DNA from: a virus | Lineage: Duplodnaviria > Caudoviricetes | Direction: 5' to 3' (one strand) | Length of the DNA: 62,374 nt | Virus record (IMG/VR): IMGVR_UViG_3300044724_008437 | Coordinates: 1 to 62,374 of that record | Shown: positions 4,440 through 50,606 of the stretch, one piece after another | How positions within the stretch are numbered: position 1 is the stretch's first letter | Layout of the letters: every line of letters begins with the position of its first letter | Position numbers and translations under genes: made by a program | The notes under the pieces: model-generated | The model's database searches: none | What the model was told of the DNA's origin: nothing | Seen by the model: the letters and a program-made list of their open reading frames with translations, nothing else

Positions 4440-4462
4440 GGGTTACTCCTTAGTGCGCTTAA

Positions 4463-4963: not shown

Positions 4964-4994
4964 GCTTTATCTCCTTGTGTATTTAGTATTTTGT

Positions 4995-5704: not shown

Positions 5705-5716
5705 AACTACTTCTCC

Positions 5717-6061: not shown

Positions 6062-6072
6062 CTTATTATCCC

Positions 6073-6687
6073 TTAAGCTAGGCTTCCAAGGATATTAATA
6101 GCATGCTGGTAACCAGTGTTGGCGCGATCCTCAGCAGCAGTCTTGATCATCTGCTTACCCTCAGCATACCCAGCTCTGATTGCCTCTGAAGCAATCTTAG
6201 TGGCCTCGTTGTGCTCTGCCTGAAGTGCCTCGGAAGCAACCTTAGTGGTCTCATCGTAGCTATGAGCATAGGCTTGCTGTGCTAGCTTCTCTAGCTCCCC
6301 GCGCGTCTCACGGTAACCTAACTCCATAGCTTGCTTCATAAGCACCTCGTCTACGTCACCTCCGCCAAAGCTAGCGACCTTGACGCCAGTACTCTCGTGC
6401 TCACCCATACGAGCAATAAACCCATCACAGACTGCTGCGCCGTACATCTCAGCCTCTTTGACGAGGGCTAGCTGCTCAGCATCGGCAAGCTTCTGAGCAA
6501 TCTTAACTAGGTCCTGAGAGGGAGTATCTACTGTAGTATTATATGAGGCTGTCTTATCCATAGAGAGTGCCGCGTCGAGGGCTGACTCTAGGCGATGACT
6601 GTGGCTTTGGCTAACCACAGAAGCGGTCTTAACCTGCTCAGTAGCAGGATTCTCTGACAATGCATCTAGAATTGATGATAGTTCCAT
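6073..6687 (-). CDS. Putative scaffold/core protein, very rich in KxA motifs
   Basis: Helical 204-aa protein next to the protease, with about 11 KxA sites. Confidence 0.6.
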   Translation of the reverse strand: MELSSILDALSENPATEQVKTASVVSQSHSHRLESALDAALSMDKTASYNTTVDTPSQDLVKIAQKLADAEQLALVKEAEMYGAAVCDGFIARMGEHESTGVKVASFGGGDVDEVLMKQAMELGYRETRGELEKLAQQAYAHSYDETTKVASEALQAEHNEATKIASEAIRAGYAEGKQMIKTAAEDRANTGYQHAINILGSLA

Positions 6688-6745
6688 TTTCTAATCTCCA
6701 TTAAGGTATACTTTGTTTGTTAAATCTTAGAGGCTGGTGCTCTTG

Positions 6746-19293: not shown

Positions 19294-19541
19294 ACGTTTA
19301 TACCTGTGTTCTTAGGGGTTTCTAGCTCCATCTTATCCCCCCAAGTAGCCATGCTAGCTCTCTCGGTAGACTCTAGAACGTTACTATCTACCTGCTTTGT
19401 AGACTTATTATCTAGCAACTCATCTAACGCGGCACTTAAATGCTCAGCAGAGTCACTTGAGTCAGTAACCTCTTCTGCAAATTTTCTAAGAGCTAGTTGG
19501 CGGCCTATTTTATAGGCGGAGTATAGATTAGTCATTTTCAA
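19290..19541 (-). CDS. Small hypothetical virion protein (AYKIG...KFA)
   Basis: Overlaps both neighbours; shares the N-terminal motif. Confidence 0.7.
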   Translation of the reverse strand: MKMTNLYSAYKIGRQLALRKFAEEVTDSSDSAEHLSAALDELLDNKSTKQVDSNVLESTERASMATWGDKMELETPKNTGINV

Positions 19542-22500: not shown

Positions 22501-23892
22501 TACCATAGCGTCTACCCTACCGCTCTTAAGGTCTTGATTAGGGAAAGCTATGACTTTCTTGGCTATATCTTTTGCGGCTACGTTAACAGTTTTACGAGTT
22601 TTAGGGTCTATAAACGTGCCGTAAAGGTTTCCTTGATCATCTCTACGCGCACCCAAGGTAAACCTTTGGTCTATACCTACGTTACCTGACTCAGGCGTTC
22701 TAAAGGCGTCTATAACTCCCAGCATTGAGCTGTGCAGCTTTCTAGCGGAGGCTGGAACAGCCCTGTCGCTAGATATACCACCTTCACCAAGCCTAGTTAC
22801 GGCCATTGCACTATCCATAATCTCAACAGGATTTATCTGAGAAGGAAGGCTAGCTAACTGAGCGGAAGCTAAAAACTTTTTTAACTCATTGCTAGTAGCT
22901 GTAGAAGGCATAACTTTATTTACGTCTACGTTAGGACTAAGATCTAGCTTATTGCGTATCTTCCACTGCAGTTCCCGGGCCTTCAACTCTAGGCGCTCTT
23001 TGAATATATCTTCTGGACCAACTACTTTTTGAAACTCTAGAGAATCACGCTCGTCCTCATCTTCCTCACCTCGATATACCTTTAAAAGCTTCTGGCTAGC
23101 AGTAAGCAGGGCCTCGGGGGTAACCTTAGCGAAGCCCTTACGCAGGGTAGACTTTGTAGTTTCCTCGTCTAGCACAGTGTTATCATAGGACCGCAGAATT
23201 GCTTGAGCCTTCTCTTTTCTACCCGAGTGTAAGCCTTGCTCAGCCTTGGGCACTACTTTCTGGTACAGCTTATCTACTGCTGAGGTAGCCGACTTAGCGT
23301 ACATGTCTCTATTTCGGTTGGTAAGCTCAGAGCCCCAGTACTTACTTATATCAGTATCTTGGAGACCCATTTCTTTTAAAATTGGGTACATCGGTATCTT
23401 GGAACTTCCGTACTCCATCTGAAGGCCGCCTTTAGTAGCATTCATGCTAAGCCTAAAGTTAGCTCCCTTAGCTAAGTTAAAGCTGGATTCCAGCTCTTCG
23501 CTACCCCTTTTTCGCGTGTACACTCCGGGCCTAGTACGTAACTGATGCTTAAGAGCGTACTCGTTACCTCCTACAACAAAGGTATTATGGTGAGTAACTC
23601 TAGGCAAATGCATAACAGTATGGTTTTTTTTGCGAGATACAATGTTACCTTGCTTGTCTTTTACAACTAGGCTTGCCTTTATAGGCTCATAAATAGAGCC
23701 TCCCTTAAACAGGGCTTTTTTGTGGTCAGCAAAGCTAATAGGCTTCTGCTTTACCTCAAAGTTATCGGCTTCGATAGTATGGTGAGTGCCGATAATAGGG
23801 AACAAACTCTTTATGCCTTCTAAGGTTTTAGCGCGTAGCAGCTCTTGACGAGCTTCAGGAGTTTGAAACAGGGGTCTTACCTTATCTACCAT
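19528..23892 (-). CDS. rpoB: RNA polymerase beta subunit fused to the N-terminal (catalytic) half of beta'
   Basis: Beta motifs RTPESGNVG, NRVIMGAKMVGQA, GDKVSNRYGGKG, GVVSRIN and GQMEINAL; beta' motifs PVLPPKLRP, RRLDFTGR, LNRAPSLHR and catalytic NLDYDGD. Confidence 0.95.
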   Translation of the reverse strand: MVDKVRPLFQTPEARQELLRAKTLEGIKSLFPIIGTHHTIEADNFEVKQKPISFADHKKALFKGGSIYEPIKASLVVKDKQGNIVSRKKNHTVMHLPRVTHHNTFVVGGNEYALKHQLRTRPGVYTRKRGSEELESSFNLAKGANFRLSMNATKGGLQMEYGSSKIPMYPILKEMGLQDTDISKYWGSELTNRNRDMYAKSATSAVDKLYQKVVPKAEQGLHSGRKEKAQAILRSYDNTVLDEETTKSTLRKGFAKVTPEALLTASQKLLKVYRGEEDEDERDSLEFQKVVGPEDIFKERLELKARELQWKIRNKLDLSPNVDVNKVMPSTATSNELKKFLASAQLASLPSQINPVEIMDSAMAVTRLGEGGISSDRAVPASARKLHSSMLGVIDAFRTPESGNVGIDQRFTLGARRDDQGNLYGTFIDPKTRKTVNVAAKDIAKKVIAFPNQDLKSGRVDAMVRGKVGKVKPSEVDYAVGRHTNLNTVNTNLVPLLDSTQGNRVIMGAKMVGQAMPLINREKPLVQSGGFEDREDEDSSVERAVGLNSTYGITSKAAGVVKSVTKDKIVIRDASGKDIETEIPRNMPLASKTFLEGSAIVKPGDKVKAGQRILDTNFTKDGTLALGMNLKVGYLAYHGLNSNDAVVMSKGATQRMASTNMTKYVIEEDRDTRVDHNKHSANFPRVFNKDQYSRLDKGVVKVGTKLKAGDPIATVLRKRTPSIENQILGKVHKSLRQEYSDASDTWDKSSEGEVVAVEKEGKRTTIVVKSIEPLKVGDKVSNRYGGKGVISKIVDDESMVQDEGGKPLDILWSSLGVVSRINPSQVIETAAAKVAEKTGNPIAIPSFKKRNNVEWVRGLMKKHGVKDKETVYDPITGKKIPNIMVGPQYTYKLFKSTDTNYAARGLDGGYDLHDAPSKGGVTGAKGTGQMEINALLAHDARDILKENAILKGTRNTEYWRAMQLGRPLPPPKSSFAFDKFKGMLAGAGLRFKKSGNDMTISPMTDGEVRQMSNGEIQNGRMVLAKNLKSESGGLFDIGKTGGVIGTKWTHIELPEPVVNPIFTDATRRLLGMTESGLTKELADKGGDHIRSKLNDINIDSRLEELKSEIGRKKGSDKDNHYKQIKALSALKQNSLKAGDAYTMKAFPVLPPKLRPIVPGAKGDLLISDINHVYKDLILAKDKLQEAKDLGLPDSDVGEMRKHMADAAGAVVGTRPPVSSALASKQVKGIVNTITGTKTGFFNGKVLARRLDFTGRGTAAPDPSLGMDEVGLPEDMMWSMYSPFVIKNLVKKGHSAIRAKEMVENKSPPAREELLIESRQRPAILNRAPSLHRFNMIAFTPKPVAGKTIQVNPFMEDGMNLDYDGDALQVHVPVTQGAVEDSKKLMLSNNVLGDRNKNTILAYPKQEAMAGLYKATAASKPTKSGVSRFKTTRDALAAYRRGELTAADEVEIEND

Positions 23893-24032: not shown

Positions 24033-25310
24033 ATGGCAAAGACTAAGAAGGGCGCAAGCCCCGCTAAGGGCTTCGAGCCCTCTATACGGGACCAGGTGGC
24101 GCAGAACCACCTGCAGCTCCGGCAGAAATTCTTCGCTTACGACAAGGCCGTCAAGGCGCCGTCGGTAGCGGGGAAGCTGGACAACTTCACTCTGCGCGTT
24201 AATCGCCAGGGTGAGGTTAGTGGCACCGAGCGCGCGCGCTTCACTGCGCAGCTCGAGCTGCTACTGGGGGCCGTCCAGATCCGCAAGAAAACGGATCCTG
24301 AAGGGACTACGGGCTCTGTGCAGACCAGCTGGGCGACTTCGCCCCTGGCGCAGAGCCTAGCGCTCGACCCCACCCGGACCTTCGAGGTCGCGGTGCGGGC
24401 ACCGGATAGGCCCAACCCTGACCGGGCACAGGAGGTGCTCCAATGGGTTCACTCGGCAGAGGAGCTGAGCCCCTACATGGGGCTCGCGCCCAACGAGAGG
24501 GGGGGCCACGTGGTCATCCCTGGCATGGGGATACTCCTCTCAAAGCTGCCCTTAGTGGTGGTAGAGAGGGAGGGCACTGGGGAGGTCGTCGCGATGGCGA
24601 CCTTCAAGGTCGCTTTAGCGACTAAGAGCCGCGGCCGGTGGGCTAAGCCCACTGCCGCTGAGGCCAAGGCCGAGGCGGAGGCTAAGGCTAAGGCTGAGGC
24701 GGAGGCTGAGGCCAAAGCTGAGGCTGAGGCTAAGGCTAAGTCCAAGGCCGAGGCCGCCGAGGCGCTCACCGCCCTCTTTGCTGAGGTCGAGGCTGAGGCC
24801 GTCGCCGAGGCGGAGCGGGCTGAGCACGCTCGCCTTCAGGCGGAGTGGGCTGCCACGGTCGAGGGGCGCGATGAGCTCCGGGCCGCCTGGGGGCCGGTGC
24901 TCTACGGGCACAATAAAGCCCGGGAGGAGGGGGAGTTCGCTCGACGATCCTTAAAGGCGCTAGTGCGGCCTGACAGGGCCCCTGCAGCTGAGCACCTCCG
25001 GGCCCTCAGGGGCTACCTGGGGAGCTACCAGGGAGCTCCCACATGGGCTCAGGTTGCTCAGTGGACGGTCGCCTCGATGGAAGGCCGCTCGGGGCGAACG
25101 CTCCAAGAGTGCCTCGACATGGCATATAGGGACCTTCCCACTCTGTACGACGGTACAGAGTGGCTCTCCTTCGACGGCGAGACCGTCAGGGAGATCCCGG
25201 CCCTGGAGGAGCTCTCCGCCTACACCAGGGAAACCTGGGAGTGGGCTCTCTACGAGAGCCCTGTAGTCACGGAGGAGGAGCGTGAGAGGCTCCTCGAGCT
25301 CGCCAGCTAG
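24033..25310 (+). CDS. Hypothetical early protein with an (AEAKAK)n helical repeat
   Basis: Strong AAGGAG SD; visibly more GC-rich than its flanks. Confidence 0.85.
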   Translation: MAKTKKGASPAKGFEPSIRDQVAQNHLQLRQKFFAYDKAVKAPSVAGKLDNFTLRVNRQGEVSGTERARFTAQLELLLGAVQIRKKTDPEGTTGSVQTSWATSPLAQSLALDPTRTFEVAVRAPDRPNPDRAQEVLQWVHSAEELSPYMGLAPNERGGHVVIPGMGILLSKLPLVVVEREGTGEVVAMATFKVALATKSRGRWAKPTAAEAKAEAEAKAKAEAEAEAKAEAEAKAKSKAEAAEALTALFAEVEAEAVAEAERAEHARLQAEWAATVEGRDELRAAWGPVLYGHNKAREEGEFARRSLKALVRPDRAPAAEHLRALRGYLGSYQGAPTWAQVAQWTVASMEGRSGRTLQECLDMAYRDLPTLYDGTEWLSFDGETVREIPALEELSAYTRETWEWALYESPVVTEEERERLLELAS

Positions 25311-27982: not shown

Positions 27983-27998
27983 TGTTATAAGTATACGC
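27983..27998. promoter_or_regulatory. Divergent promoter element TGTTATAAGTATACGC
   Basis: Repeat of 23924-23939; lies between portal (-) and helicase (+). Confidence 0.65.
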
Positions 27999-29911: not shown

Positions 29912-30676
29912 ATGGGATATACACTACCCAAGAACTACTTATCTGCTAGTCAGATATCTAAGTACCTAAGCTGCCCTCAGCAGTACTATCGAGACTACAT
30001 ACTAGACGAAAAGCCTAAGTTTACTAGAACAGCCGCTATCTCGGTGGGCTCGGCAGTACATAAGCTAGTAGAGAATAAGCTAAGCTCTATACTCGAGGAC
30101 TCAGAGCTAGAGGAAACTAAGCTCTTTGCTACTACACCTCTAGATAGCTTCTTCGCAGACTCAGACCTAGAAGACCACGAGCCTGAGTATTGGCATACCT
30201 ACTCACAAATTTTATACAAAACGTGGTATAAGGAAGTAGGCATGTCCATCATGCCCACAGCTAGCGAGTTCGGATTCGAGTCTCTCATAGGGGATGTACC
30301 AGTTCTAGGCTACATTGACTATGTAGATAACTCGTCCGGACGACCGGAGATCGTTGATCTCAAGGTTACTAAGCGTGCTAAGAGCGAAGCTGACGCTAGG
30401 AACAGTGTGCAGCTCGCAATGTACGCAATCACGCAAGAAAACCCTTGTGTGAGGTTTGACTCCCTAGTAAAAACCAAGACTCCTAAGATAGGTGTGGCCC
30501 GCTACACCTTCTCTAAATCAGAGCTTGGGTACTACACAGATCTCATAGGAGAGGTCGCAACTAACATAAGCGCGGGTAACTTCCCTATGACCGCGCCTAC
30601 ACAGTGGGTATGCTCCGAGAAATGGTGCGCTCACTACACAAACTGTCGAGGAAAGGACAGAGACGCTAATGGCTAA
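29912..30676 (+). CDS. PD-(D/E)XK (RecB/Cas4-like) exonuclease
   Basis: SASQI..CP, GSAVH, GYIDYV, IVDLK, QLAMY, C-terminal Cys cluster. Confidence 0.85.
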   Translation: MGYTLPKNYLSASQISKYLSCPQQYYRDYILDEKPKFTRTAAISVGSAVHKLVENKLSSILEDSELEETKLFATTPLDSFFADSDLEDHEPEYWHTYSQILYKTWYKEVGMSIMPTASEFGFESLIGDVPVLGYIDYVDNSSGRPEIVDLKVTKRAKSEADARNSVQLAMYAITQENPCVRFDSLVKTKTPKIGVARYTFSKSELGYYTDLIGEVATNISAGNFPMTAPTQWVCSEKWCAHYTNCRGKDRDANG

Positions 30677-40600: not shown

Positions 40601-40673
40601 GCCCTACGACGTAGAAGTGGGACCTACATATGGAGAAGCTAAACATAGCATAGGAGCATACGCGCAAATGTAG
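37650..40673 (+). CDS. polA: Family A DNA polymerase with N-terminal UDG-like domain and 3'-5' exonuclease
   Basis: CASCPL and LEAPP (UDG-like); DFET and YAAIDA exonuclease motifs; TGRLS..PNLQN; DFAGAEVR; RQHAK; VHDS. Confidence 0.93.
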   Translation: MKPARCASCPLYRDTYIAPLGANVGAKVVFLLEAPPSWARVSLSGKEADLLKVVLSTAAEQDTTGTTADMINSALYMYALSCASNTPASVKLINSCSDNVGAQQVINSGAEVVVAFGAKPLSFFGIKDKHSNLLGGMREVRFHGKNLKLITTFSVSQLLREPGIADIMAKDIQKAALAVAGKPLDHIDIPELIKGYDIPTSLEEAISIAEEYCSYSKPGKKLAQTMMALDFETNTLYNYWDKSRTIAISGAVAPGKAFALYVDHKDSPYSFRDIIPWVWKILQSDHPKCWWNYKFDYGIAAITLLRQTYEAMAEDSSGTLRSKIEEVTGRDFNEILANPVNNTQWDGLLGEHMLDENKSGHYSLKSVVLKHYPSLSGYEKPLHEQIASANDILVAKYEADATDNALVGLQKLSPTGSSSDLSTELEEIKRISTKLRADKKSKKANASLKATIDSTIDILKCRSKHIRKVRTEVSKILRTVTSIDQGIEFSNPLHNAATFEDVEPKVMLPYAAIDADLTLRISDSQRKKAWAEDPKKVADKENRDYMMLLMAKHYIPLTYVLSDMQTEGIRIDRAYLLSESDRLLNKETTLEKELVSQIASDLGRDINDIVLHNPTELANLMVGGYGLPVVATTDSGEASSSNVAMEAWAKLNPIADKILEYRKVAKARSTYVQNLLTLSDYDSRVHGNIWANGTATGRLSASKPNLQNQPPKLGGTFIKKAFVPTDTSSEATSWEVHLRRKYKWAVGEEMCIVDLDFAGAEVRGLTVYAQDPALLDALNRGLDMHSWVASIVFDLDYDSINMARKVDKAKQNETEQKLVTNRQHAKAIVFGLIFCISAPKLANDLKISVAEAEGLMAMFFQRFPKIKEYIEGTKNRVVREGILRTPTGRARRFPLAKAGGAMAASSQRQGVNFLVQGFTSEIVNRVLINLHRHMHEVRGRLMITVHDSIVFEMPRKNLGMLDQFFSKRVREFIQQEFPMVPVDLPYDVEVGPTYGEAKHSIGAYAQM

Positions 40674-40680
40674 CCCTAAC

Positions 40681-40692
40681 TGTGTTATAAGT
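40681..40692 (+). promoter_or_regulatory. Promoter element TGTGTTATAAGT upstream of the ncRNA array
   Basis: Identical 12-mer to 27981-27992. Confidence 0.65.
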
Positions 40693-40695
40693 TAG

Positions 40696-41317
40696 TGCTC
40701 TATTGAGCATACTAGTAGCGATGAATCTTAAGAAGTAACTTCTCAGTACCATCTTTGGACGAAGTCCTGAACTTATGGACAGTTGTTCACCTTGTACTAG
40801 TAGCTAATTACTGGGAAGCAACTTCTCAGACCCAAGGTTGGTGTACCACCCGCTGCGCACGCCCCGGGATCCTGATGCATCACTTTGTACTAGTCCCCTA
40901 ACTCTAATTACTAGTAGCTAGGTAAAGAGTAGGCACTACTCTATCCCCTGGCGGCCTACGGCTGGCTGCACGGTCGTCCAAGCACACGCATGTACTAGTA
41001 GCTAACTAGCCGCGAAGTTACTTCGCGGATCTATAGTTGGTGGGTAAACCCTCACCTCGTGATGTCGTCGGAAGACCGACAACTCCTTGTACTAGAACCT
41101 AGGCTTCATTACTCGTAGAAACTACGAGGTCCCTACTCGGGGCCGTGTCGCCTAACGGCGAATTCGGCCCAGCGGCGACGGGATGTCGACACTAAATTGC
41201 TAGGTAATAACTGACTTAGGCTTGACTTATGTGTAGGTTACCTGCACTCTCTAGGTCTGGTCTACGACCAGGGAAAATCCCCAGAAATCCAGGGAAATTA
41301 CTATTTTGCTAAGTCAG
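40696..41317 (+). ncRNA. Array of six retron msr/msd-like structured RNA units
   Basis: Units 40710-40802, 40796-40894, 40909-41000, 40995-41095, 41097-41205 and 41211-41317. Each has terminal inverted repeats, G-C after the 5' arm, TG before the 3' arm, an NNA-triloop hairpin and a second hairpin. Confidence 0.75.
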
Positions 41318-41330
41318 GAAAAAACTAAAA

Positions 41331-41567
41331 ATGGACGCTAAACAAGCCGCTGACCGAGCGCACGTATGCGGTGCTCATGTAGAAATCGCACTAAACGAAC
41401 ACCCCTTCATAGAGGGCGACGCGGATGCAAAGGAAAAGGTAAAGGATATTATGGCCAATATCTGGAATCTCTACCAATACCTAAACGCTAAAGCTGAGGC
41501 TGAGGAGCTCAGCCCCCCTGATAAAACTGCAGATCGTGAGTTAGTATCTTGCACGCAGCCCAGCTAA
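41331..41567 (+). CDS. Small hypothetical protein directly after the array
   Basis: 78-aa ORF with AGGA SD; 3' end overlaps terminase. Confidence 0.6.
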   Translation: MDAKQAADRAHVCGAHVEIALNEHPFIEGDADAKEKVKDIMANIWNLYQYLNAKAEAEELSPPDKTADRELVSCTQPS

Positions 41568-43020
41568 ACACAGCCGCGTGCAGACAGTCATCAGGCGAGT
41601 TAGGCGAGTGGCGCCATACCTTCTTGCCGGAAGGCATCACCTCCTCATAGAGAGCAAGCATGTCTTCAAAAGCATCTTTCATCTCGGCCTCAGGTAAGAA
41701 CTGGACACGACCTTGCTTCACGTCCAAGAAGAAACAGTCTATAAGAGTGGTACGATCCGCTAGGTACCTGTCCACTCCGTTCCAGTTAAGAGGCTTACTA
41801 GAGCTACCGTACTGCAACTGATAAAGCGGCTTACCTTGTAGGCTCTTATGTAGCAGCGAATTAGCGAGAGCTCCCTCACCAGCATCGCCTATTACTAGGT
41901 TAACTCCATACTCATGGAACGTGCGCGCTATGCGCTCCACGGCATCTACGGGATTGACGTCCTTGTAGATACAGTAGTGGTGCATGATGAACTTACCACC
42001 CGGGGATCTAGAGAAAACCCAGCTAACAGTGCGACTAAGTCCCTTGCTGCCTCCTCCACTCCAATCGACGCCCCCACAGATAAAACCTGCGGGAGACTGC
42101 CTGGGCTTACATGCCCGGAGAAGCTCGTCGATTGATATGAGCCTTGACCCTACGGCGTCACTAACGCCTAATACCTCATTCTTAAACTTACTCTCGGAGT
42201 AAGTGTCTAGCTTGTTAAGTATCCTCCCCCACCGGTGAGGCTCCATATTAGCGGGTAAGATAACTTGAGGTACATGGAACGCTTTGGTGTAGTACTTATC
42301 TTTCATGTCTACCCATATACCGTTCCTGGGATCTACAGGCTTTGAGCAGTGGAGACACTCTATGCCGTTCTTACCGATACCCTTAACCTCTCGGTAAAAC
42401 GAGTACTTGTTACAAGCAAGGCACTTAATGCACCACTCACTCTGGGAACTGCTATCCCAGATAAACTGTATGGTGTTCTCTTGGGTCTTAGGTGTGCCCA
42501 TGTAGGACACAAACCCATACTTAGAATTAGCCAGGCACTCATTAACCACAGGCACTACTGCCTCGTAGTCTATGTCCTGAACCTCATCGTATATGATCCT
42601 ATCTGCGGATACTCCACGTACCCGATCAGGATCATCGGAGGCATAGTTAAACAGCAGCTCGGCCCCGTTACCCAGTACCTTCAGGAACACGTTGTCCGAG
42701 GTAACGGTGCCCATCAGCTCTTTAACTACAGGGCTATGTCTAACTAGCTTACTAATTCTAGTGTTAGAGAAAGTGCTAGTCTGCTTCAGTGTTGGCGCTA
42801 TATACAGCGTCTTAAAGTGAGGTATCGCAATACTCTCACACACACTAAACGCAGCAGCGCTAACTGACTTACCCACCTGTCGGCCGCACATCAATAGGGT
42901 ACTAGGCCACTCGCCCTCATAAAGGGCGTTATAGAAGGGGTAGTCATCTAAACTAAATGGAGAGCCGTCTAGCTCGAGCGTAGCCTCTGCTAGAGACTTT
43001 CTATCACAACTTAAATCCAT
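41509..43020 (-). CDS. terL: Terminase large subunit
   Basis: CGRQVGKS Walker A, RGVSADRIIYDEVQD Walker B, GTPKT, Zn ribbon, nuclease GVDW and PDDCLHA; start at 43020 preferred over 43041. Confidence 0.9.
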   Translation of the reverse strand: MDLSCDRKSLAEATLELDGSPFSLDDYPFYNALYEGEWPSTLLMCGRQVGKSVSAAAFSVCESIAIPHFKTLYIAPTLKQTSTFSNTRISKLVRHSPVVKELMGTVTSDNVFLKVLGNGAELLFNYASDDPDRVRGVSADRIIYDEVQDIDYEAVVPVVNECLANSKYGFVSYMGTPKTQENTIQFIWDSSSQSEWCIKCLACNKYSFYREVKGIGKNGIECLHCSKPVDPRNGIWVDMKDKYYTKAFHVPQVILPANMEPHRWGRILNKLDTYSESKFKNEVLGVSDAVGSRLISIDELLRACKPRQSPAGFICGGVDWSGGGSKGLSRTVSWVFSRSPGGKFIMHHYCIYKDVNPVDAVERIARTFHEYGVNLVIGDAGEGALANSLLHKSLQGKPLYQLQYGSSSKPLNWNGVDRYLADRTTLIDCFFLDVKQGRVQFLPEAEMKDAFEDMLALYEEVMPSGKKVWRHSPNSPDDCLHAAVFSWAACKILTHDLQFYQGG

Positions 43021-43030
43021 AAGGAACACC

Positions 43031-44188
43031 ATGTCCAACAAAGAAAAGAACTATGCCGACACCATCGGCGTTAGCCGTATTAGTATCGGCGACTGTCATA
43101 AGACCCTACTACCTATCATGCTTGCAGGCAATACGCCTTGCATGCATGGCGAGGCCGGTATCGGTAAGACCGAGATAGCCTTGCAGCTAGCCTACGCACT
43201 GGGCGTGAAGCGAGACGCCTTTGCCCCTATCATGGTAAGTCAGAAGCTTAGCTCTGACTTCTTAATCCCTTTCAGGGATAATACTGCCAAAGGCCAGTAC
43301 TTCCGGATGCTTATGGCAGGCTGGCTAAAGCCTATAATGGAAGCAGGAGAGCGCGGGGAGCCTTCTGTGCTCTTCTTCGATGAGATAACTCGTTACCAGG
43401 ATGCCGAGACTGCATCGGTTATCTTTTCTATCATCTCCGATAGAACCCTAGGCGAGTACAAGCTGCCAGATAACTGCTATATCTTAGCCGCCTGCAACCC
43501 GGATAACGGTAACTACCAGGTTAACGATATCCTAAATGACCCTGCTTGGCGCCGACGCCTAAACCACGTTGAGGTAGTGCACGACGTGGCTGGCTGGTTA
43601 CGTTGGGCTAAGGAGGAGGGTGTCCATGAGTGGGTAACCGACTATGTATCTAGCAACATAGAGATGCTCCTAGATGAGAAGGCACGAGCTGCTGGAAAGA
43701 TCTATGCTACACCCGCCAGCTGGGCTAGAGTTAGCAACTTCTTGCAGGTGAATGATAACCTGCTTAGCATGCCGGCCTTGGCTTCCTACGTAGGCTATGA
43801 CGTAGCTAGCGACTTTATAGCTTACACCGAGGATAGTGAGTTCAAACTGTCTCCGGCTACTGTGCTTAGTGACTGGACCCAGACGCTAGAGGTACTTACT
43901 CGCATAGAGGAGGCTAGCCGCGGCGACCTGGTTACTAGGCTCGTGAGCTCTACGGTGATGTACCTATTTACCAATAAGCCAGACGCAGCTAAAGCTGCGA
44001 GGCCCTTAACTAAATTCTGGGCGCACATCAGCGCAGAGGCCAAGGTTAAGCTCGTAACCGAGCTATTCTCCGGAAAGGAGCGGGACGGTGACTCCTACCA
44101 TACGCTCCTCATGTCCGAGGTTATGAAGTCGCCTCTCTGGGCCACTAAGATCCTGCCAGAGGTCAGGCACTGCATGGGTAGAGTCTAA
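43031..44188 (+). CDS. MoxR-like AAA+ ATPase
   Basis: GEAGIGKT, LFFDEI, AACNP, DPAWRRR. Confidence 0.88.
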   Translation: MSNKEKNYADTIGVSRISIGDCHKTLLPIMLAGNTPCMHGEAGIGKTEIALQLAYALGVKRDAFAPIMVSQKLSSDFLIPFRDNTAKGQYFRMLMAGWLKPIMEAGERGEPSVLFFDEITRYQDAETASVIFSIISDRTLGEYKLPDNCYILAACNPDNGNYQVNDILNDPAWRRRLNHVEVVHDVAGWLRWAKEEGVHEWVTDYVSSNIEMLLDEKARAAGKIYATPASWARVSNFLQVNDNLLSMPALASYVGYDVASDFIAYTEDSEFKLSPATVLSDWTQTLEVLTRIEEASRGDLVTRLVSSTVMYLFTNKPDAAKAARPLTKFWAHISAEAKVKLVTELFSGKERDGDSYHTLLMSEVMKSPLWATKILPEVRHCMGRV

Positions 44189-44212: not shown

Positions 44213-44851
44213 CTACTTTAGCGCATCTAATTTTTTAGATCTTAGCTTAGACATAGTGCCCACATATGTAGTTATTTCGTCTAACTTCCTCTTTAATACC
44301 GGGTTAGCTACGGAGTCAGATATCTCCTGGGGTAAGTCATAAAACCGCTCTAGTTGATCGCAGCATAGGGACAGCTCCTCTGGACAGTAGGGTATTCCCG
44401 AGTCGAATAGGCAGCCTGCCATATAAATCTTAGGATCCTCACCGAACAAGGGCTCTATGCCACTTGCGTTGTTGTATACCTGATTTAAGGCATTAAGCTC
44501 ATTTAAGGTATACGCTACTTGCGCAGGGCTTAGAGGCTCCCAAATGCGTGGTACGGCAAGCATCCCGTTACTGGTTTGCCCTATACACATAAACGCTGCT
44601 GCATCCCATAGATAGACTGGGTTTAGTAGAGCGGCTATCCCCCCTAAGAGCCTATCTCTACCTTCCTCAGGAGGTAAGCACCCCTCATCCTCTAGCTCCT
44701 CAAGAATAGTATCTATCTCCCAAGTAAAGCAGGCGCCACCTGTTAAAATATCGCAGCTGACTACTAAAGAAGTTAAAGGAACAATATGCCTAGACTTAAG
44801 TAGTTCTATGGCCGCGTCTTTATTTGTGTAGGTAGACGTAGCGGATTGCAT
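44213..44851 (-). CDS. Hypothetical protein
   Basis: 212-aa ORF, TAATG-coupled to the upstream gene. Confidence 0.75.
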   Translation of the reverse strand: MQSATSTYTNKDAAIELLKSRHIVPLTSLVVSCDILTGGACFTWEIDTILEELEDEGCLPPEEGRDRLLGGIAALLNPVYLWDAAAFMCIGQTSNGMLAVPRIWEPLSPAQVAYTLNELNALNQVYNNASGIEPLFGEDPKIYMAGCLFDSGIPYCPEELSLCCDQLERFYDLPQEISDSVANPVLKRKLDEITTYVGTMSKLRSKKLDALK

Positions 44852-45834
44852 TACAAAGATAGCTCCTTAACTAGGGCCTGCTTCATATCGGCAGGTAGGG
44901 TATCTAAAATCTCTACTAGGGCATCAGGCATTATCTCTCCGTTTTCGGAGATCTCGGATACTATATCACTACCTAAAATGTCACCGTAAGCTTCAGGGCT
45001 AACAGCCAGTAACTTCTCAACGGGTACCTGCTTACCTGCTAATTCTAGCATAGGCTGCATGGCAGTCTTGGTATTAAATACAGTAGAAACTGGATCCAAT
45101 AGCGTCCTACCATAGTATCTATTAAACCCGGCTAAGCTATCTAGCTCACCAATAGCATTAGATAACTTTATAAGGTCGTCCCGATCTACGGAGCCGTCTA
45201 GGCTGGTTACTACATGAGCAATCTTAGTATAAGCCTCACTAATTGCTGAAGTAGGCGCCTTATGTGCTCGGGTCTCTACCCAGTCCCGCGTCTCTTGAGT
45301 GTCACATTGGACTAGTCCCGCATATTTAAGAGTCCAGTTACTTACGTTTTCCCCTCTACGAGAAGCCTCCTTCACAAGCTTTAAGGCACCGTCGGTTAAA
45401 GACTTGCTAGACAACTTAGCTTGATTACGCTGTAGGGCTTCTTCTCCTGCGGAAATTGGGGTATTAGAGTAAAACGCTAACTTTTGCTGAGACTCTGCTA
45501 AATACATAGGAGCTTCTTCTTTATAGGAAGCTAATTTTGGTTGATTGAAGATATCCTTCGGTACATCAAACATATCTAGCGCTGTGTCTATCTGGACCAT
45601 AACCGTGCTCGCAAGATTTGCCACTTTTGTGGCATAAGCCTTAGACAGCACCGCGTCTGCCGCTGAATGGACCGGGAACAACCTATTACCCGGGTCAGCA
45701 AACGCAGATACAGGCAAGGAGTTTCTAACATCTTCTCCTACCTGGGCTGTTTTAACATATTCCCTAATCTCGGGATATGTAGCTAGCACGTCTCTTAGGG
45801 AGGCGTAAGTAACATCAGTATTCTGATCAATCAT
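44851..45834 (-). CDS. Hypothetical virion-type protein (KxA motifs)
   Basis: 327 aa; KTA, KVA, KLA, KYA, KIA; SAFADP..RLFP. Confidence 0.75.
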   Translation of the reverse strand: MIDQNTDVTYASLRDVLATYPEIREYVKTAQVGEDVRNSLPVSAFADPGNRLFPVHSAADAVLSKAYATKVANLASTVMVQIDTALDMFDVPKDIFNQPKLASYKEEAPMYLAESQQKLAFYSNTPISAGEEALQRNQAKLSSKSLTDGALKLVKEASRRGENVSNWTLKYAGLVQCDTQETRDWVETRAHKAPTSAISEAYTKIAHVVTSLDGSVDRDDLIKLSNAIGELDSLAGFNRYYGRTLLDPVSTVFNTKTAMQPMLELAGKQVPVEKLLAVSPEAYGDILGSDIVSEISENGEIMPDALVEILDTLPADMKQALVKELSL

Positions 45835-45845
45835 GGAGGAATCCT

Positions 45846-47417
45846 TTGAGGAAAAAATTTGTCATTCCGACAGCTAGACCTAAGGTAAGTATAGCGAAGT
45901 CATACCGCACTTACCTAGCCAAACTTATGTCACGAGGTACATATAGCAGGTTTAACTTTTTTGCAGACATACTCAGCGGTCTGCAGACTCAGGAAGACGC
46001 CGCGACTAAGACATTCTCTATTCAGGTAAAGAATGGGCACTATCTCATGAAGTACTCTCCGGAGATGGTAGAGGCTCTAGACGAATACGGGGCGGGTATT
46101 GTCATATGCCACGAGCTAGGACATGCCGCTCTAGGGCACTTGCCTCGTATGATTAGGCTGCACGATATGTTCTCCGAGGACAAGAAAAAGCAGCTAGCGG
46201 CAGCCGCAGTTATACATGTAGCGGCTGACTATGCTCTAAACTCGTGGCTTATTGACGACTGTAAGATCTTTACACTTACAGACCTCAAGACGCGTATTGG
46301 TACGCCGCTAGAGGAAGGTCCTACATTCGAGGATAGCCCAATGGGAAGCTATGCGGGCATACACCCTAGCGACGTTGATCTACCTCCCTCTAAGAGTATG
46401 GAGTGGTATGTAGAGAAGCTAAGTGAGCGGATTATAAGAGAGCCTTGGAATGTGACAAGGCTAGTAAACCCCGAGGGAGGACAAGGAGACTCCGAAGACC
46501 AAGCGCTGGGTGATGGCCAGGGCAGCTCGGGTACCATAGGTAAGCTTAGTCAAGCCGCTGGAGCTATGACCTCTGAGCAACTAGATGAGCTATGCAAAGC
46601 AGCTGGACTGAATCCTGAGGAGGACATTGATAACCTCAACTCAGCAGACGGTGAGACTTCAGCCTCAGAGTTGGCAGATCAGCTAGAGCGCGAGTTTATC
46701 CGTATGATGCAGGCCTCGCTTGAATCTACTAAGAACCGAGGTACTATGCCCGGTAACCTACAGTCCTGGGTAGAAGAGCTTCTAAAGCCCCCAGTAGTAG
46801 ACTGGCGGCAAGAGCTTAGAAACTACTGCAAGACAGCTAAACCCAGCCTAAAGAAGTCCACTATTGCTAGGCCCCGCCGTAAGCATATTAACCTGGGTTC
46901 CTCTATTGAAGTTTGCGAATATCCAGGTAAGCAGAAAAACCCTAGCTACCGGATCGTGTTTGCAATCGACACCTCCGGGTCGGTAAGTGACTCTGAGCTA
47001 CAGGAAATATTTACAGAGCTACGTGGGATTCTAAACTCTAACGTGGGTACCGAGGTAACCGTAGTAGAGTGCGATACCCAGATCGGTAAGATCTATGAGC
47101 TCTCTGGGACCAGTGACGTAGACACTAAAGTTAGCGGCAGAGGCGGTACAAGCTTTGATCCTGTATTTGAGTGGGTTAACGGTAAGCCCTGGGCGGACGA
47201 GGTGTGCCGCAAGCACCCAGACCTTCTAATCTACGCTACCGACGGCGAGTGCAGCTTGCCTCCCCTAGGGATACGCATCCCACAAAACAAGGTACTATGG
47301 CTTATTAGCTCTAGAGGTCGAATTCCCTCTGATAGCTATTCTTGGGGCCAATCTACCGATAAAACTTCTGGATACGGAGACTATGGACGATTCATCAAAG
47401 TTAGTTCCCAAGGTTAG
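45846..47417 (+). CDS. Metallopeptidase-like plus VWA domain protein (MoxR partner)
   Basis: CHELGH (HExxH), MIDAS DTSGS, GRGGTSF, YATDG. Confidence 0.88.
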   Translation: MRKKFVIPTARPKVSIAKSYRTYLAKLMSRGTYSRFNFFADILSGLQTQEDAATKTFSIQVKNGHYLMKYSPEMVEALDEYGAGIVICHELGHAALGHLPRMIRLHDMFSEDKKKQLAAAAVIHVAADYALNSWLIDDCKIFTLTDLKTRIGTPLEEGPTFEDSPMGSYAGIHPSDVDLPPSKSMEWYVEKLSERIIREPWNVTRLVNPEGGQGDSEDQALGDGQGSSGTIGKLSQAAGAMTSEQLDELCKAAGLNPEEDIDNLNSADGETSASELADQLEREFIRMMQASLESTKNRGTMPGNLQSWVEELLKPPVVDWRQELRNYCKTAKPSLKKSTIARPRRKHINLGSSIEVCEYPGKQKNPSYRIVFAIDTSGSVSDSELQEIFTELRGILNSNVGTEVTVVECDTQIGKIYELSGTSDVDTKVSGRGGTSFDPVFEWVNGKPWADEVCRKHPDLLIYATDGECSLPPLGIRIPQNKVLWLISSRGRIPSDSYSWGQSTDKTSGYGDYGRFIKVSSQG

Positions 47418-47922
47418 TATAGAGAAGGTTGCCGAGGGTGTGGCTCATATAATAGCTAATCCCGAGCTACTTCCTCATACAGTAGTGCCAGGTATATCTA
47501 GCACAGCTAAGTTGGTAGAACTCGTTGTGTTCCGAGATGAGCACTGTATGGCCAGTAACATGCACCTGCTCGGCCTTACATGGCTAGCAGACCTGTTCTC
47601 TAATGCCTGCGACCTCAGTACACTGCTAAACCATATCAGTAAAACCTCCCTGTTACTGAACGACTGGGATAAAAAGCAGATGTGGCTAGCTGTTCCACTA
47701 GAAAGAGCTAGCAAGGACCGCTACACTATGTCCCCTAGCCAAGGGTACTACGGTAACTTATCGTACCTAATGTCTTGTAAGACAGCTATTATCTATGACG
47801 CTATCAGAGATGTAGCAAGCCCTACACTAGAGGTTTGTCCGTTCTCCCTAGACCATTTAATGTCTAACTGCGAGCTGGGCTGCGGCAAGTGCTCTAAGGG
47901 GTTATTTGGTGTTTCCCCCTAG
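47383..47922 (+). CDS. Hypothetical protein upstream of the RT (C-terminal Cys cluster)
   Basis: Overlaps both the VWA and RT genes; CELGCGKC. Confidence 0.65.
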   Translation: MDDSSKLVPKVSIEKVAEGVAHIIANPELLPHTVVPGISSTAKLVELVVFRDEHCMASNMHLLGLTWLADLFSNACDLSTLLNHISKTSLLLNDWDKKQMWLAVPLERASKDRYTMSPSQGYYGNLSYLMSCKTAIIYDAIRDVASPTLEVCPFSLDHLMSNCELGCGKCSKGLFGVSP

Positions 47923-48889
47923 TAAGAGGTTATTAGCTAACTCTCTAGGGTATAGTCTAAAGGCCCTTACGTTTTTATGTAAGGATCTAGGGGAAAACAG
48001 CGAGACCTACTACACTCTTATTCGTATACCCAAAGGTAACGGTAAGTTCCGTAAGGTATATAAAGTAGATAGTAGACTTAAGCTTGTCCATAGCCGTATT
48101 AAGTCCTTATTAGAGGAGCGGCTGCCCGCCACGGGCAGCTCCTACGCATATGAGCCCGGCTGCACAGTAGCTGCCGGTGCCAGTCGTATGGGCAAGCATA
48201 AGCTACTAATTTCTGTGGACTTTAAAGACCACTTTAGCTCAGTAACTATGTGGCAAGTAACTAAAACACTAGAAGAGGCAGGCGCTAAGCCGGAGGTAGC
48301 ATTTATGCTAGCTCGACTAAGCTGCATAACTAGGGGTAAAAGAAGCTTTCTTCCCCAGGGCAGTGAGATCAGCCCAATGCTTAGCAATAGGGTAAGTGAA
48401 CATCTACTAGACCCAGTATTAGAGCAAGCTTTCCCGGGTGCTACTATAACCCGCTACAGCGACAATCTGTACTTTGGCTTTGACACTAACCTAGTTAGCG
48501 GCGTTAACACGATTAGTAAGGTTAAAGAGCTAGTACGCCTGCAGACCGGCTGGAGGTGCCACAAGTGTCGAATAATGCCTTACTACAAACGGCAGAGGGG
48601 CCTGGGTCTAGTACTTAATAAAGGAGCTAATATGCCAAGAGAGAAGTACCTAGCCTTAAAGGCCCTACTGCACAATCTAGCTCAGAAAGATCCCGAACAA
48701 GAACTAGTTCGGGCTAGAGAAGAGTTTGGTTTTCAAGAACTAAGTGTTGGAGAGCTACTCATTTCCCTGCACGGCCAACTATCCTATTGGCGCCAGTTCT
48801 TATCGCTAGCTAAGCATAACAAGCTATCTACTTTACTAACCAAAGCAAAGGAACGCAATGAACGAAAAACCAATAGCAACGGTAGCTAA
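47906..48889 (+). CDS. Retron-like reverse transcriptase with YSDN motif
   Basis: IPKGNGKFR, SYAY..G, VDFKDHFSSV, LPQGSEISPMLSN, TRYSDNL, QRGLGLVLN (VTG-region equivalent); no maturase or Cas1 domain. Confidence 0.9.
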   Translation: MVFPPSKRLLANSLGYSLKALTFLCKDLGENSETYYTLIRIPKGNGKFRKVYKVDSRLKLVHSRIKSLLEERLPATGSSYAYEPGCTVAAGASRMGKHKLLISVDFKDHFSSVTMWQVTKTLEEAGAKPEVAFMLARLSCITRGKRSFLPQGSEISPMLSNRVSEHLLDPVLEQAFPGATITRYSDNLYFGFDTNLVSGVNTISKVKELVRLQTGWRCHKCRIMPYYKRQRGLGLVLNKGANMPREKYLALKALLHNLAQKDPEQELVRAREEFGFQELSVGELLISLHGQLSYWRQFLSLAKHNKLSTLLTKAKERNERKTNSNGS

Positions 48890-50606
48890 GCTACCCAGCT
48901 TATGGCTAGGCTGGCATGGGTCACAACCCATGTTTAGCGGGCATGAAGAGCACACAGACTACCGAGGATACTGGTCTCTAAACAGTAGCCAGGGTACTAC
49001 CGACGTAGGCGCTATAGTAGTAACTGAAGTTACTGAGTCGCTAGTTAAGGCAGCGCTAAAGCACAGCCCTTTAGTCCTATGCGCTAAGGCTAAGGACTTA
49101 GCCACGTACCTATGGAAGTTGACGCAGGAATTTAACTACCGTAGAAGTTCACTGCGATCAATTGAAGCCTCGTCATATGCGGAGGCGATGACAGTGGTAG
49201 CCGGCCATACCGCACCCTTTGAAGACAACGGTTTACCTCGCGGGCTAGAGCCTACAGAGAATAGCTGGGTCTTGATATCTGGGATGCCGGATTTCTTAGT
49301 TGCAAGTCTGTGGGCTAGGCTTACAGACGGCGGTATTCTAACAGGCTACTATGAGGAAGAAGGGGTACTACAAAAACTAGAACTGTCAAACCTGGATAGC
49401 TATTGCGAGGACTATCGAGTTCTCCTACCTCTAGGTTGCCTTTCGTGCCCTGCTAATAACAAGTGCGCGTCTCACCTAACAGGTAACGACTTCCCTATCC
49501 CTGAAGTAGACGTAAAGCAGCTAAAGAAAAGCATCGCTAGATTACCCGATGTGGCTTCTGCACCCCCCAGCGTACTATCTAGGCACTCTCAGAACATATC
49601 TGTGGTGGATATAAATATGGCCGGGGCTACGAAGATGCTACAGGTACACCGCGAGTTAACGTCCCTCAGGGCTGAAGCTAGAAAATTTTATAAGAACAAC
49701 TGTGATAAATGTTCTTTAAAACTTGTGTGTGGGTCTAATAAGCTAATTACTCAGTCCGGTGAAAAGTCCGAGCACATGGGTAAACTATGTAGTGGTAAAA
49801 CTACCGTTGAGACTGCAGTTACCCTAGACAACTATACCGAGGTGTTGCCTGCCTTGGTGGGTATGCTAGACAACTTAAACCCAGTAGGATATTCACCTGA
49901 CGCTTCTAAGCCTAGAAGACTTAAGGCCGCTTTGCAAAAACTGACAGAGTGGATAGCCACGGGCTCACAAGTGCCGAGAGAGCTAAGTTACTACCTAACT
50001 ACAGACAGATATGTGATGCCACAAGAGTTCATGGACTTGGTAGACGTCCTAGATCTACGCGGTGGCTACGCTTCCTATGAGAATTGGGCTAAGCCCTGGG
50101 TATCAGACATAACTAGCGAGGTAGCTAAGGCTGTACACATGGGTAAACCTAAGAGTTCTGGCTGGCTTGTACTTGGTCCAAGACAGCTAAATACGTCCTA
50201 CAACTCATACCCGATACATTACCGAGAGCTGAGGTTTGTAGATGTTAAGCTTAGCTCAAGGATAGAGGGTATCCCGTCCTCTCGGGGTTACACTAAAAAA
50301 CTAGGTAGAGCCCAAGCTAGACTTAACCTAATCTGCTACCTTATACGCGCACTACTCTTACCCAATTCTGTTATCCGTAGTGGTAGCTTTGGAAATAAAA
50401 AATCCTATGTCTGCTCAGGTGTTCTCTACCATAGACTCTGGAACGCATTCACTACTACCCACTCTACTACGACTGTTCCTGATGGGAAGGCAGCAGCCTA
50501 TCTTGTAGAATCTACTAGTTATGCTTTACAGGAGGTTCTAGGAGGTAGATACGGCCCTAACTACCGACTCGCCAAGAACTTAACTAAACTAAAGGAGGTA
50601 TTATAA
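48858..50606 (+). CDS. Hypothetical protein with two CxxC-x5-C motifs
   Basis: 582 aa; overlaps the RT stop; CLSCPANNKC and CDKCSLKLVC. Confidence 0.75.
   Translation: MNEKPIATVAKLPSLWLGWHGSQPMFSGHEEHTDYRGYWSLNSSQGTTDVGAIVVTEVTESLVKAALKHSPLVLCAKAKDLATYLWKLTQEFNYRRSSLRSIEASSYAEAMTVVAGHTAPFEDNGLPRGLEPTENSWVLISGMPDFLVASLWARLTDGGILTGYYEEEGVLQKLELSNLDSYCEDYRVLLPLGCLSCPANNKCASHLTGNDFPIPEVDVKQLKKSIARLPDVASAPPSVLSRHSQNISVVDINMAGATKMLQVHRELTSLRAEARKFYKNNCDKCSLKLVCGSNKLITQSGEKSEHMGKLCSGKTTVETAVTLDNYTEVLPALVGMLDNLNPVGYSPDASKPRRLKAALQKLTEWIATGSQVPRELSYYLTTDRYVMPQEFMDLVDVLDLRGGYASYENWAKPWVSDITSEVAKAVHMGKPKSSGWLVLGPRQLNTSYNSYPIHYRELRFVDVKLSSRIEGIPSSRGYTKKLGRAQARLNLICYLIRALLLPNSVIRSGSFGNKKSYVCSGVLYHRLWNAFTTTHSTTTVPDGKAAAYLVESTSYALQEVLGGRYGPNYRLAKNLTKLKEVL

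Follow-up and report, generated by a model that had tools for sequence, protein, structure and literature searches.

A reverse transcriptase of apparent retron descent with a YSDN motif is a core gene of a marine and estuarine phage lineage and is co-inherited with an array of structured RNAs

We have found that large uncultured phages of one marine and estuarine lineage carry, as a syntenic core gene that is inherited vertically, a reverse transcriptase (RT) of apparent retron descent. The gene lies on the plus strand at 47906..48889 of a 62,374-nucleotide (nt) stretch of viral DNA (Duplodnaviria; Caudoviricetes; IMG/VR record IMGVR_UViG_3300044724_008437, positions 1 to 62,374), the whole of which was analysed and is referred to here as the window. 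Motif C of the RT, which forms part of the active site, reads YSDN in place of YxDD, and the gene is co-inherited with a non-coding array of structured RNAs that lies 6.6 kb upstream of it on the plus strand, at ~40680-41330. Retrons are known as bacterial anti-phage systems that consist of one RT, one adjacent non-coding RNA (ncRNA) and an effector. What is new here is a retron-derived RT that is a long-standing core gene of a widespread phage lineage, that has no adjacent ncRNA, that has a selected YxDN site and that is inherited with a diverse array of structured RNAs. We consider it close to certain that the gene specifies a functional, selected, retron-derived RT and is a core gene of this phage lineage.

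An intact gene under purifying selection

The RT frame is free of stop codons and specifies 327 amino acids (aa) from a TTG at 47906. We prefer GTG 47909 (326 aa) as the probable true start because a Shine-Dalgarno sequence, AAGGGG at 47896-47901, sits before it and because the closest homologue, P0002, begins MFPPS. The translation contains LPQGSEISPMLSN and matches the RVT_1 family of Pfam (E 8.5e-15). The Asp of motif A (D105, 48218..48220, inside SVDFKDHF) and motif B (LPQG, 48350..48361) are canonical and invariant in the family, the former in 28/28 family members, and motif C (YSDN, 48455..48466) is specified by the codons TAC AGC GAC AAT. A profile alignment of the family pairs the NAYKH of the retron Ec67 RT with GASRM (region X, 48176..48190) and its VTG with GLG (region Y, 48599..48607), and column counts agree, so that the window RT has lost the His of the retron motif NAxxH. 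A preliminary description of the window, made from the sequence alone, had recognised a retron-like RT of 327 aa with these three variant motifs, and both the gene and the motif readings hold.

The start of the RT gene is overlapped by 17 nt by an upstream open reading frame (ORF; 47383-47922) and its end by 32 nt by a downstream one (48858-50606). Both of these were recovered as coding in relatives by tblastn, and this leaves no space for an adjacent ncRNA or msr-msd, as the preliminary description had also claimed.

A word-indexed search recovered 27 homologues of the RT with 46-93% identity, all of them derived from metagenomes or viromes. In the 28-row alignment TRYSDN, LPQGS, SP..SN and the Asp of motif A are invariant, and YSDN is present in 28/28 rows. 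The ratio of nonsynonymous to synonymous substitution rates (dN/dS) is 0.056, 0.111 and 0.082 in the only three pairs with unsaturated dS (dS <1), which is the mark of purifying selection.

A core gene of an uncultured phage lineage

Genes for PolA, a primase-like protein, a helicase, TerL and a head protease-like protein are present in the window, as are those for two large proteins (19528-23892 and 16338-18113, both on the minus strand) that match beta-like PHROGs of phage multisubunit RNA polymerase (RNAP). Loci were fetched both via the RT and via TerL, and they share a conserved block in the order primase, PolA, non-coding gap, TerL (minus strand), MoxR-like AAA5, two minus-strand genes, DUF2201 (VWA/metallopeptidase), a small protein with four conserved Cys residues (Cys4), the RT and further genes. 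An RT was found in every locus that covers the position beside the DUF2201 gene, and RT identity drops to 26-31% as TerL identity drops to 46-71%. Motif C of the syntenic RTs (loci are given by our labels) is YSDN in L025, L029, L027, L028, L030 and L118, YCDN in L116, YSDD in L135 and L136, and YADD in the most distant, L117, a 194-kb record that is rated complete. In the tree described below, a starred branch (96*) has all six of the syntenic RTs that could be placed on the same side, so that the change from Asp to Asn arose within a phage-borne RT lineage.

We note that a search of 185,579 bacterial and archaeal species genomes yielded 22 candidate stretches, none of which was confirmed as a relative, and that INPHARED yielded no close phage. 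Among cultured phages the nearest are Salmonella phage Arash and the Vibrio phages D69, D148 and D181 (TerL 29%, RNAP 33% identity), and these are also the closest cultured relatives of the two RNAP-like proteins, again at 33% identity. Arash was considered as a control without an RT and was dropped, as it lacks shared synteny. The window stretch is present in DNA runs from an estuary and from other metagenomes; no RNA run is among those listed. The window is a 62-kb fragment, and related records span 72-194 kb.

That the catalytic and signature motifs of the RT are non-canonical might be taken to mean that the gene is a decaying pseudogene, or recently captured defence cargo (a retron remnant) that plays no role in the phage. 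The frame is intact, however, dN/dS is 0.06-0.11 and YSDN is invariant; synteny of the RT holds down to 46% TerL identity; and the RT has diverged about as much as neighbouring core genes (in L001, identities are 62% for the RT, 65% for DUF2201 and 70% for AAA5). We therefore regard this reading as refuted and its probability as negligible. The preliminary description had itself raised the case of YADD homologues with decay in the window copy, and that case falls on the same observations, together with the retention of the other catalytic residues.

Likeness to retron RTs

All 25 of the best PADLOC models shown for the window RT are retron RT models, with RT-TIR_XII (2.3e-34), RT_XIII (3.1e-33) and RT-Protease_XI (2.9e-31) at the top. 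For the basal phage RT of L117 the best model is RT_XIII (2.8e-57, next model 1.4e-47), and by hidden Markov model the nearest retron type is probably type XIII (clade 10 of Mestre et al. 2020; Mx162, Mx65, Sa163 and Ne144). The family profile matches 12 proteins of known structure in the PDB at E<=1e-5, and 12/12 are retron RTs. The top matches are the RTs of Retron Eco2 (Ec67) and Eco1 (Ec86) (9lm3, 9i2f, 7v9x, 7v9u), at E 2.4e-20 and 7e-18. An AlphaFold2 model of the RT (pLDDT 88.6) finds retron RTs at Foldseek ranks 1-17, with Ec67 and Ec86 again closest (E 4e-17 and 3e-16, TM score by query ~0.6). These two RTs share the fingers-palm-thumb layout of the window RT, and the alignment to them extends through region Y, although identity is 18-25% and they differ in that their motifs are YADD, NAxxH and VTG and that they come with a defence effector and an msr-msd next to the RT.

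The usual kinds of RT in phages are those of diversity-generating retroelements (DGRs) and group II introns. RTs of both kinds, along with those of G2L4 and DRT9, are present among the Foldseek matches, from rank 19 down. A DGR or group II intron RT is nevertheless a reading to which we give almost no weight, since the top sequence and structure matches are all to retron RTs. Moreover, no dispersed pair of template and variable repeats of at least 45 nt is present in the window (1700-62374), only two coding tandem repeats, and no intron or other Rfam family is found in the window at the gathering threshold.

The sections on retron signatures in two published studies (PMC7736814, PMC12475279) describe NAXXH in region X, with His as its most conserved residue, VTG in region Y, with Gly as its most conserved residue, and an ncRNA that is contiguous with the RT and has an inverted repeat and a priming G. 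The window RT departs from these signatures. At NAXXH the window has GASRM, and the His, kept in 20/20 outgroup RTs and in 11/12 members of the clade described below that have Asp-Asp at motif C (DD), the twelfth having an alignment gap at that position, is kept in 12/44 members with Asp-Asn (DN) and gone in the other 32/44. At VTG the Gly is kept in 56/56 clade members, the Thr is replaced by Leu in 56/56 and the Val is kept in 31/56. Motif C of the window RT is YSDN rather than YxDD. The non-coding locus nearest to the RT lies 6.6 kb away, beyond three genes on the opposite strand. Given the loss of the His, the survival of only the Gly of VTG and the want of a contiguous ncRNA, we term the RT retron-derived and not a retron, its descent being judged from sequence and predicted fold.

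Type XIII retrons thus differ from the phage system in several ways: they are bacterial chromosomal genes where the phage RT is a phage core gene, they have YADD, NAxxH and VTG where the window has YSDN, GASRM and GLG, and their ncRNA is contiguous with the RT where the candidate phage ncRNA is not and forms an array of diverged units. The account of type XIII in Mestre et al. (2020) gives their accessory genes as HEAT/ARM or SWIM zinc-finger genes. Unlike type XIII, the window RT has no HEAT/ARM or SWIM accessory among its neighbours by Pfam or PADLOC. The only named phage matches are retron RTs of the Klebsiella phage 4LV2017 type (23% identity over 73% of the query). These temperate-phage RTs, which we take to be accessory defence genes of P2-like prophages, are cargo and not syntenic core genes.

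YSDN is a lineage trait

The preliminary description called the RT an orphan, and here our results differ, since it is no isolated oddity and belongs to a large clade of Y[SC]DN RTs from phages. Among 1.84 billion representatives a profile search found 9,690 matches at E<=0.001, and among 177 collected RT proteins motif C is YADD in 98, YSDN in 49, YSDD in 12, YCDN in 11, YVDD in 3 and YCDD in 3, with one fragment that does not reach the region. Trees were built with the motif C columns excluded, with 9/28 of the close family members kept and 3 short rows dropped. FastTree places the window RT inside a starred clade that is entirely DN. A quick IQ-TREE run of 76 rows gives a 56-row clade (99*) made up of 44 DN and 12 DD rows, in which the window RT belongs to a 32-row subclade that is entirely DN (support 87; 29 of those rows at 96*). 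On the IQ-TREE topology the DN label changes 6 times, at least 2 of these changes being forced by starred branches, and the DD and DN forms interchange within the 56-row clade. The YxDN site is a trait of the lineage, with Y[SC]DN in 44/44 DN members. An A3 alignment search of viral contigs for RTs returned 28 loci, of which none has YxDN, 26 have YxDD and 2 have neither, and P0030 used alone as a query matched no viral locus. A full-text literature search returned no paper that pairs YSDN with reverse transcriptase, and among the papers listed on phage-encoded reverse transcriptases none was relevant, although supplementary tables of retrons may still hold members of the clade.

The remaining catalytic and nucleotide-binding residues are as strictly kept in the 44 DN RTs as in 20 canonical outgroup RTs: D105 in 44, F110 in 41 (with Tyr in the other 3), Q151 in 43, G152 in 44, Y184 in 44, D186 in 44, N187 in 44, K220 in 40 and R49 in 43. 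This pattern would fit a polymerase with altered active-site chemistry better than a dead scaffold. From the pattern of conservation we think it likely that the RT still polymerises.

Two facts weigh against catalysis: losing the second Asp of motif C abolishes activity in the RTs that have been studied, and the window RT has also lost the His of NAxxH. A natural replacement of Asp by Asn at this second position does occur in an active right-hand polymerase, namely in the GDN motif C of the mononegaviral RNA polymerases. These are RNA-dependent RNA polymerases of eukaryotic viruses that have only the palm fold in common with the window RT. It is also conceivable that the RT is catalytically dead or nearly so and serves as an RNA-binding subunit, specific for sequence or shape, that assembles the array RNAs into ribonucleoproteins (RNPs) as a scaffold, chaperone or decoy and makes no complementary DNA (cDNA); the preliminary description had suggested, as one of two options, a dead RT that might act as an RNP scaffold or as a decoy, for example against host retrons. 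In keeping with this, the second Asp is replaced in 44/44 DN clade members, the His is lost in 32/44 DN RTs as against 1/12 DD relatives (the alignment gap noted above), and the hairpin stems of the array are of fixed length, commonly 7 base pairs (bp), and free in sequence, which suits recognition of shape by a protein. The discussion of region X in Mestre et al. (2020; PMC7736814) states that the His may be needed for initiation or catalysis. On the other hand, the Asp of motif A, the Phe at +5 (the position of HIV-1 Y115), the QG of motif B, the first Asp of motif C, the Lys of motif D and the Arg of the fingers are kept as in canonical retron RTs, down to ~30% identity, the Asn is fixed and has not drifted to other residues, and DD and DN interchange inside the clade. 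We accordingly consider a dead RT quite unlikely.

A plus-strand array of structured RNA units

The array (~40680-41330) is the sole non-coding stretch of more than 400 nt in the window. It is headed by a promoter-like element on the plus strand (40662..40691) that consists of GCGCAAAT, 13 nt and TGTTATAAG and that begins within the last codons of the PolA gene. An element of the form CGCAAA(A/T)-N11-13-TG(G/T)TATAAG directly follows the PolA stop codon in 12 distinct contigs (the window, L001, L002/L021, L003, L004, L017, L024, L026, L027, L028, L030 and L118). Five related records each have 5-7 copies of the nonamer of this element; its reversed control is absent from four of these records and has 3 copies in the other one. 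The window has three copies (27983-27991, 30224-30232 and 40683-40691) of the class CGCAAAAA-N11-13-TG(G/T)TATAAG, of which the one at 27983 lies 47 nt before the helicase ORF and the one at 40683 heads the array. A consensus scan for sigma-70 promoters and terminators over 40-51 kb found fewer promoter-like sites than in shuffled sequences.

Six structured units follow on the plus strand (40710-40802, 40795-40895, 40909-41000, 40993-41097, 41090-41205 and 41197-41320). They are bounded by palindromic boxes of the TACTAGTA type, in the window followed by a G in 4/5 cases, and their predicted folds are closed and multi-branched, the z-scores being -1.5 to -3.2. Six triloop hairpins of the type G-NNA-C, with stems of 5-8 bp, are found on the plus strand at 40731-40743, 40811-40829, 40926-40942, 41010-41028, 41112-41128 and 41231-41247. 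The 657 nt of the array thus contain 6 hairpins of this type, and the 61.7 kb that make up the rest of the window contain 23 on the forward and 20 on the reverse strand. A TAGTAGCTAA-like box lies ~4-10 nt upstream of each array hairpin, and the stems vary in sequence between units and between phages while their length stays at ~7 bp. The units of L027, L028 and L030 differ in sequence and show compensatory changes in two helices, where both sides have changed in 9/19 pairs. The share of paired cells is 94.7%, as against 83.3% in shuffles; none of 500 shuffles is as high, and slid controls give 25-56%. Because G-U pairs occur only on the strand that runs in the direction of PolA, the array RNA is read from the plus strand of the window. 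The array is thus a genuine structured-RNA locus on the plus strand, the strand of the RT, and in this the preliminary description is borne out. Rfam gives no family for the arrays of the window or of L028, or for the bacterial arrays described below, even at E<=10 or E<=1, and only chance-level matches to microRNAs and small RNAs.

As regards the boxes, ACTAGT occurs at 29 sites in the window, 5 of which lie in the array within a stretch of 290 nt. The pattern ACTAG-N75-105-ACTAG was tried as a signature of the array and proved uninformative, since ACTAG is common throughout some of these genomes. We note that ACTAG pairs 75-105 nt apart exceed a reversed control many times over in the virus records G003 (48 vs 4), G004 (19 vs 1) and G005 (10 vs 0) and do not do so in G001 or G002, which suggests that part of the lineage has a genome-wide CTAG-rich composition.

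Co-inheritance and transcription of the RT and the array

Both loci are covered by 12 distinct contigs (the window, L001, L002, L003, L004, L017, L027, L028, L030, L118, L116 and L117), and in 11/12 of these an array is present in the gap between PolA and TerL. Even in L117, the phage whose RT has YADD, a gap of ~3.3 kb holds a non-coding array of ~1.9 kb with ten hairpins of the G-NNA-C type.

The preliminary description saw no obvious plus-strand promoter or terminator between the array and the RT, which it took to lie on one strand. The two are indeed on the same strand, but three minus-strand genes (TerL, 41509-43041; ORFs 44213-44851 and 44851-45834) intervene and make co-transcription implausible. 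Most likely, to judge from the promoter-like element and the gene order, a separate phage promoter drives the array, which is not transcribed jointly with the RT.

A resembling module in bacterial type XIII-like retrons

The A3 search of genome contigs yielded 80 bacterial retron loci, all with generic YADD RTs of <=36% identity, and these were scanned for the same type of hairpin. Clusters were flagged in 2/80, namely L055, from a Polyangiaceae metagenome-assembled genome (MAG), and L092, from a Planctomycetota MAG. No locus with at least 5 hairpins in 700 nt was found among the other 28 viral RT loci or among 9 loci with distant TerL. L055 has 9 tandem units of 182-222 nt (5560-7330) and L092 has 7 of 154-184 nt (3850-5000), in both cases on the strand of the RT, and the array of L055 fills the gap immediately upstream of its RT. 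The unit consists of an (A)G(C/T)TAGC box, an 8-bp hairpin (CUGCGGYGUYACGCCGYGG) and an AAGTAG box. The RTs of both loci are canonical (YADD, NAxxH, VTG) and match RT_XIII at 1e-106 and 4e-111, and a HEAT plus aldo-keto-reductase protein is encoded beside the RT in L055 and L092. Directly upstream of the array of L092 there is also a near-perfect inverted repeat of ~178 nt (3631-3808), with a chance-level match to a microRNA precursor in Rfam.

A covariance model of the bacterial module (R1; TAGC box plus 8-bp G-YYA-C hairpin), trained on L055 and L092, gives 39 matches at E<=0.01 in 22/80 bacterial loci, always on the strand of the RT. In 20/22 of these loci the distance from the end of the last copy to the first start codon of the RT frame is -19 to 301 nt. 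There is one copy in 17 loci, there are two in 3 (L058, L079 and L046), and the training loci have 7 and 9. The module of a box plus a triloop hairpin therefore belongs to the RNA encoded at the site that the ncRNA occupies in type XIII-like retrons, and in some loci it occurs as several tandem copies. We know of no description of tandem multi-copy retron ncRNA modules, and a literature search on type XIII ncRNA returned nothing on them. The bacterial module resembles the phage unit, with its TAGTAGCTAA box and 7-bp G-NNA-C hairpin, in architecture only.

Does the array supply the RNA partners of the RT?

We think there is a good probability that the array supplies the RNA partners of the RT; this is the best available reading, and its basis is co-inheritance, elimination and the type XIII parallel. 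A partnership between the two is a plausible hypothesis.

Several observations weigh against such a partnership. In the L115/L116 lineage an RT is present and the gap between PolA and TerL has no array, although L116 has one unit-like leader, a promoter plus hairpin, elsewhere in its genome. The arrays of L118 and of the L027 group lack the G-NNA-C hairpin. The helix that would close a unit from box to box is invariant, so that it shows no covariation and nothing backs a stem like a1/a2 of retrons. R1 applied to the phage loci gives at best 14.6 bits within an array (E 0.27), with equal scores elsewhere. A reciprocal model from 37 phage modules (R2) finds no unit of L055 or L092 at E<=5 with filters on; with filters off, 12/16 weak matches fall in the arrays of these two loci, the best of them (16.4 bits, E 0.13) not being significant. 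The trees do not settle whether the phage clade is sister to the myxobacterial type XIII clade. No RT-less phage of the lineage was found, and co-inheritance is thus indistinguishable from shared ancestry. Finally, the 62-kb window is incomplete, and other RNA loci may lie outside it.

These points bear on an alternative in which the RT is functional but its partner is another phage transcript, a host RNA or an RNA outside the 62-kb fragment, in which case the array would be a small-RNA locus of the replication module in its own right. The transcription units of the RT and of the array are separate, with three opposite-strand genes between them, L116 has an RT without an array at the usual site, and the cross-searches with R1 and R2 are not significant. 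The promoter class of the array is one that it has in common with the helicase operon (27983) and not with the RT operon, and the incompleteness of the window leaves room for such a partner. Against this, the window has no other large non-coding locus, the array and the RT are inherited together in 11/12 contigs that cover the two, and bacterial retron RTs of the nearest type have a resembling module directly upstream, sometimes in tandem. We consider this alternative unlikely.

A possible split, multi-template phage retron

We propose that the RT is a functional, retron-derived enzyme, nearest to type XIII, that has been vertically inherited as a core gene of these large marine and estuarine phages, which also have genes for PolA, a primase and multisubunit-RNAP-like proteins, and that YSDN is a fixed, selected variant of motif C with which the enzyme most likely polymerises by means of an altered use of metal or an altered chemistry of initiation. 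Its cognate RNAs would most likely be the units of the array, transcribed from a phage promoter of their own. In each unit the box and the 7-bp triloop hairpin may provide a handle for binding by the protein, and the variable GC-rich hairpin that follows is a possible template. The system would then be a split, multi-template phage retron, of which the Cys4 protein may be an accessory subunit. Taken together, an active RT with the array as its template has, in our estimate, slightly less than an even chance of being right; binding of the array RNAs, catalysis, cDNA synthesis and any role in replication or counter-defence are what we infer. More tentative still, and doubtful as it stands, is the fuller proposal that the system is essential to the phage rather than serving bacterial defence: the DN-site RT and a Cys4 partner would use the at least 6 array RNAs to make small cDNAs or RNPs during infection, as decoys in counter-defence or in replication, having descended from type XIII retrons, some of which have tandem arrays.

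If the RT and the array do work together, then a lytic phage programme would routinely include reverse transcription. The system would also be a natural multi-template retron, which would interest those who develop retron-based editing, and it would provide a natural test of the role of the second aspartate of motif C.

Neighbouring genes and other features of the window

The Cys4 protein (179 aa; 47383..47922, plus strand) has the invariant residues C132, C152, C163 and C170, and its gene is the one that overlaps the start of the RT. A predicted complex of the RT with this protein has an ipSAE of 0.42 (runs 0.35-0.49) as against 0.00 for the best of three controls, with predicted contacts that agree in at least 87% of cases and a pLDDT of at least 81 for the partner. 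In the calibration, the pairs that passed at scores of <=0.60 were 7/80 solved complexes and both of the 2 mismatched pairs that passed (110 tested). The prediction thus lends weak support to a complex, and it is possible that the Cys4 protein is an accessory of the RT. By eye, a similar C-terminal Cys pattern is seen in proteins whose genes adjoin that of the RT in L116, L117, L135 and L136 or, in L027 and L028, lie downstream of it; hhalign comparisons of the Cys4 proteins of the window group with those of L027/L028 or L116/L117 gave probabilities of 1-3% and so no support. The Cys spacing differs from that of the SWIM zinc finger of the type XIII accessory. The gene that overlaps the end of the RT (48858..50606, plus strand) encodes a protein of 582 aa that has no family match and is poorly conserved (20-28% identity). 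For this protein and the Cys4 protein the protein atlas returned nothing of use.

Within the RT ORF a GC-rich 9-bp hairpin with a CCA triloop, of the G-NNA-C type, lies over the conserved LPATGS codons (48120-48140), and comparable 7-bp hairpins lie over EExLL codons of the gene for the Cys4 protein in L135 (from 5252) and in L136 (from 5327). These hairpins within genes may be coincidences of codon use.

Elsewhere in the conserved block, the genes for the MoxR-like AAA5 ATPase (43031-44188) and the DUF2201 VWA/metallopeptidase protein (45846-47417) flank the two minus-strand genes, and the block is kept with the RT across the lineage. TerL (41509-43041, minus strand) is far better conserved (82-95%) than all other proteins shared among the same phages (45-75%). 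No tRNA was found in the window. Coding repeats are present at three places: a collagen-like repeat with a 9-nt period at the left end (1-2412, minus strand), a 15-nt tandem repeat with 11 copies (11599-11767) within the ORF at 11267-13405, and a GCTGAG-type repeat (24657-24754) in the ORF at 24033-25310.

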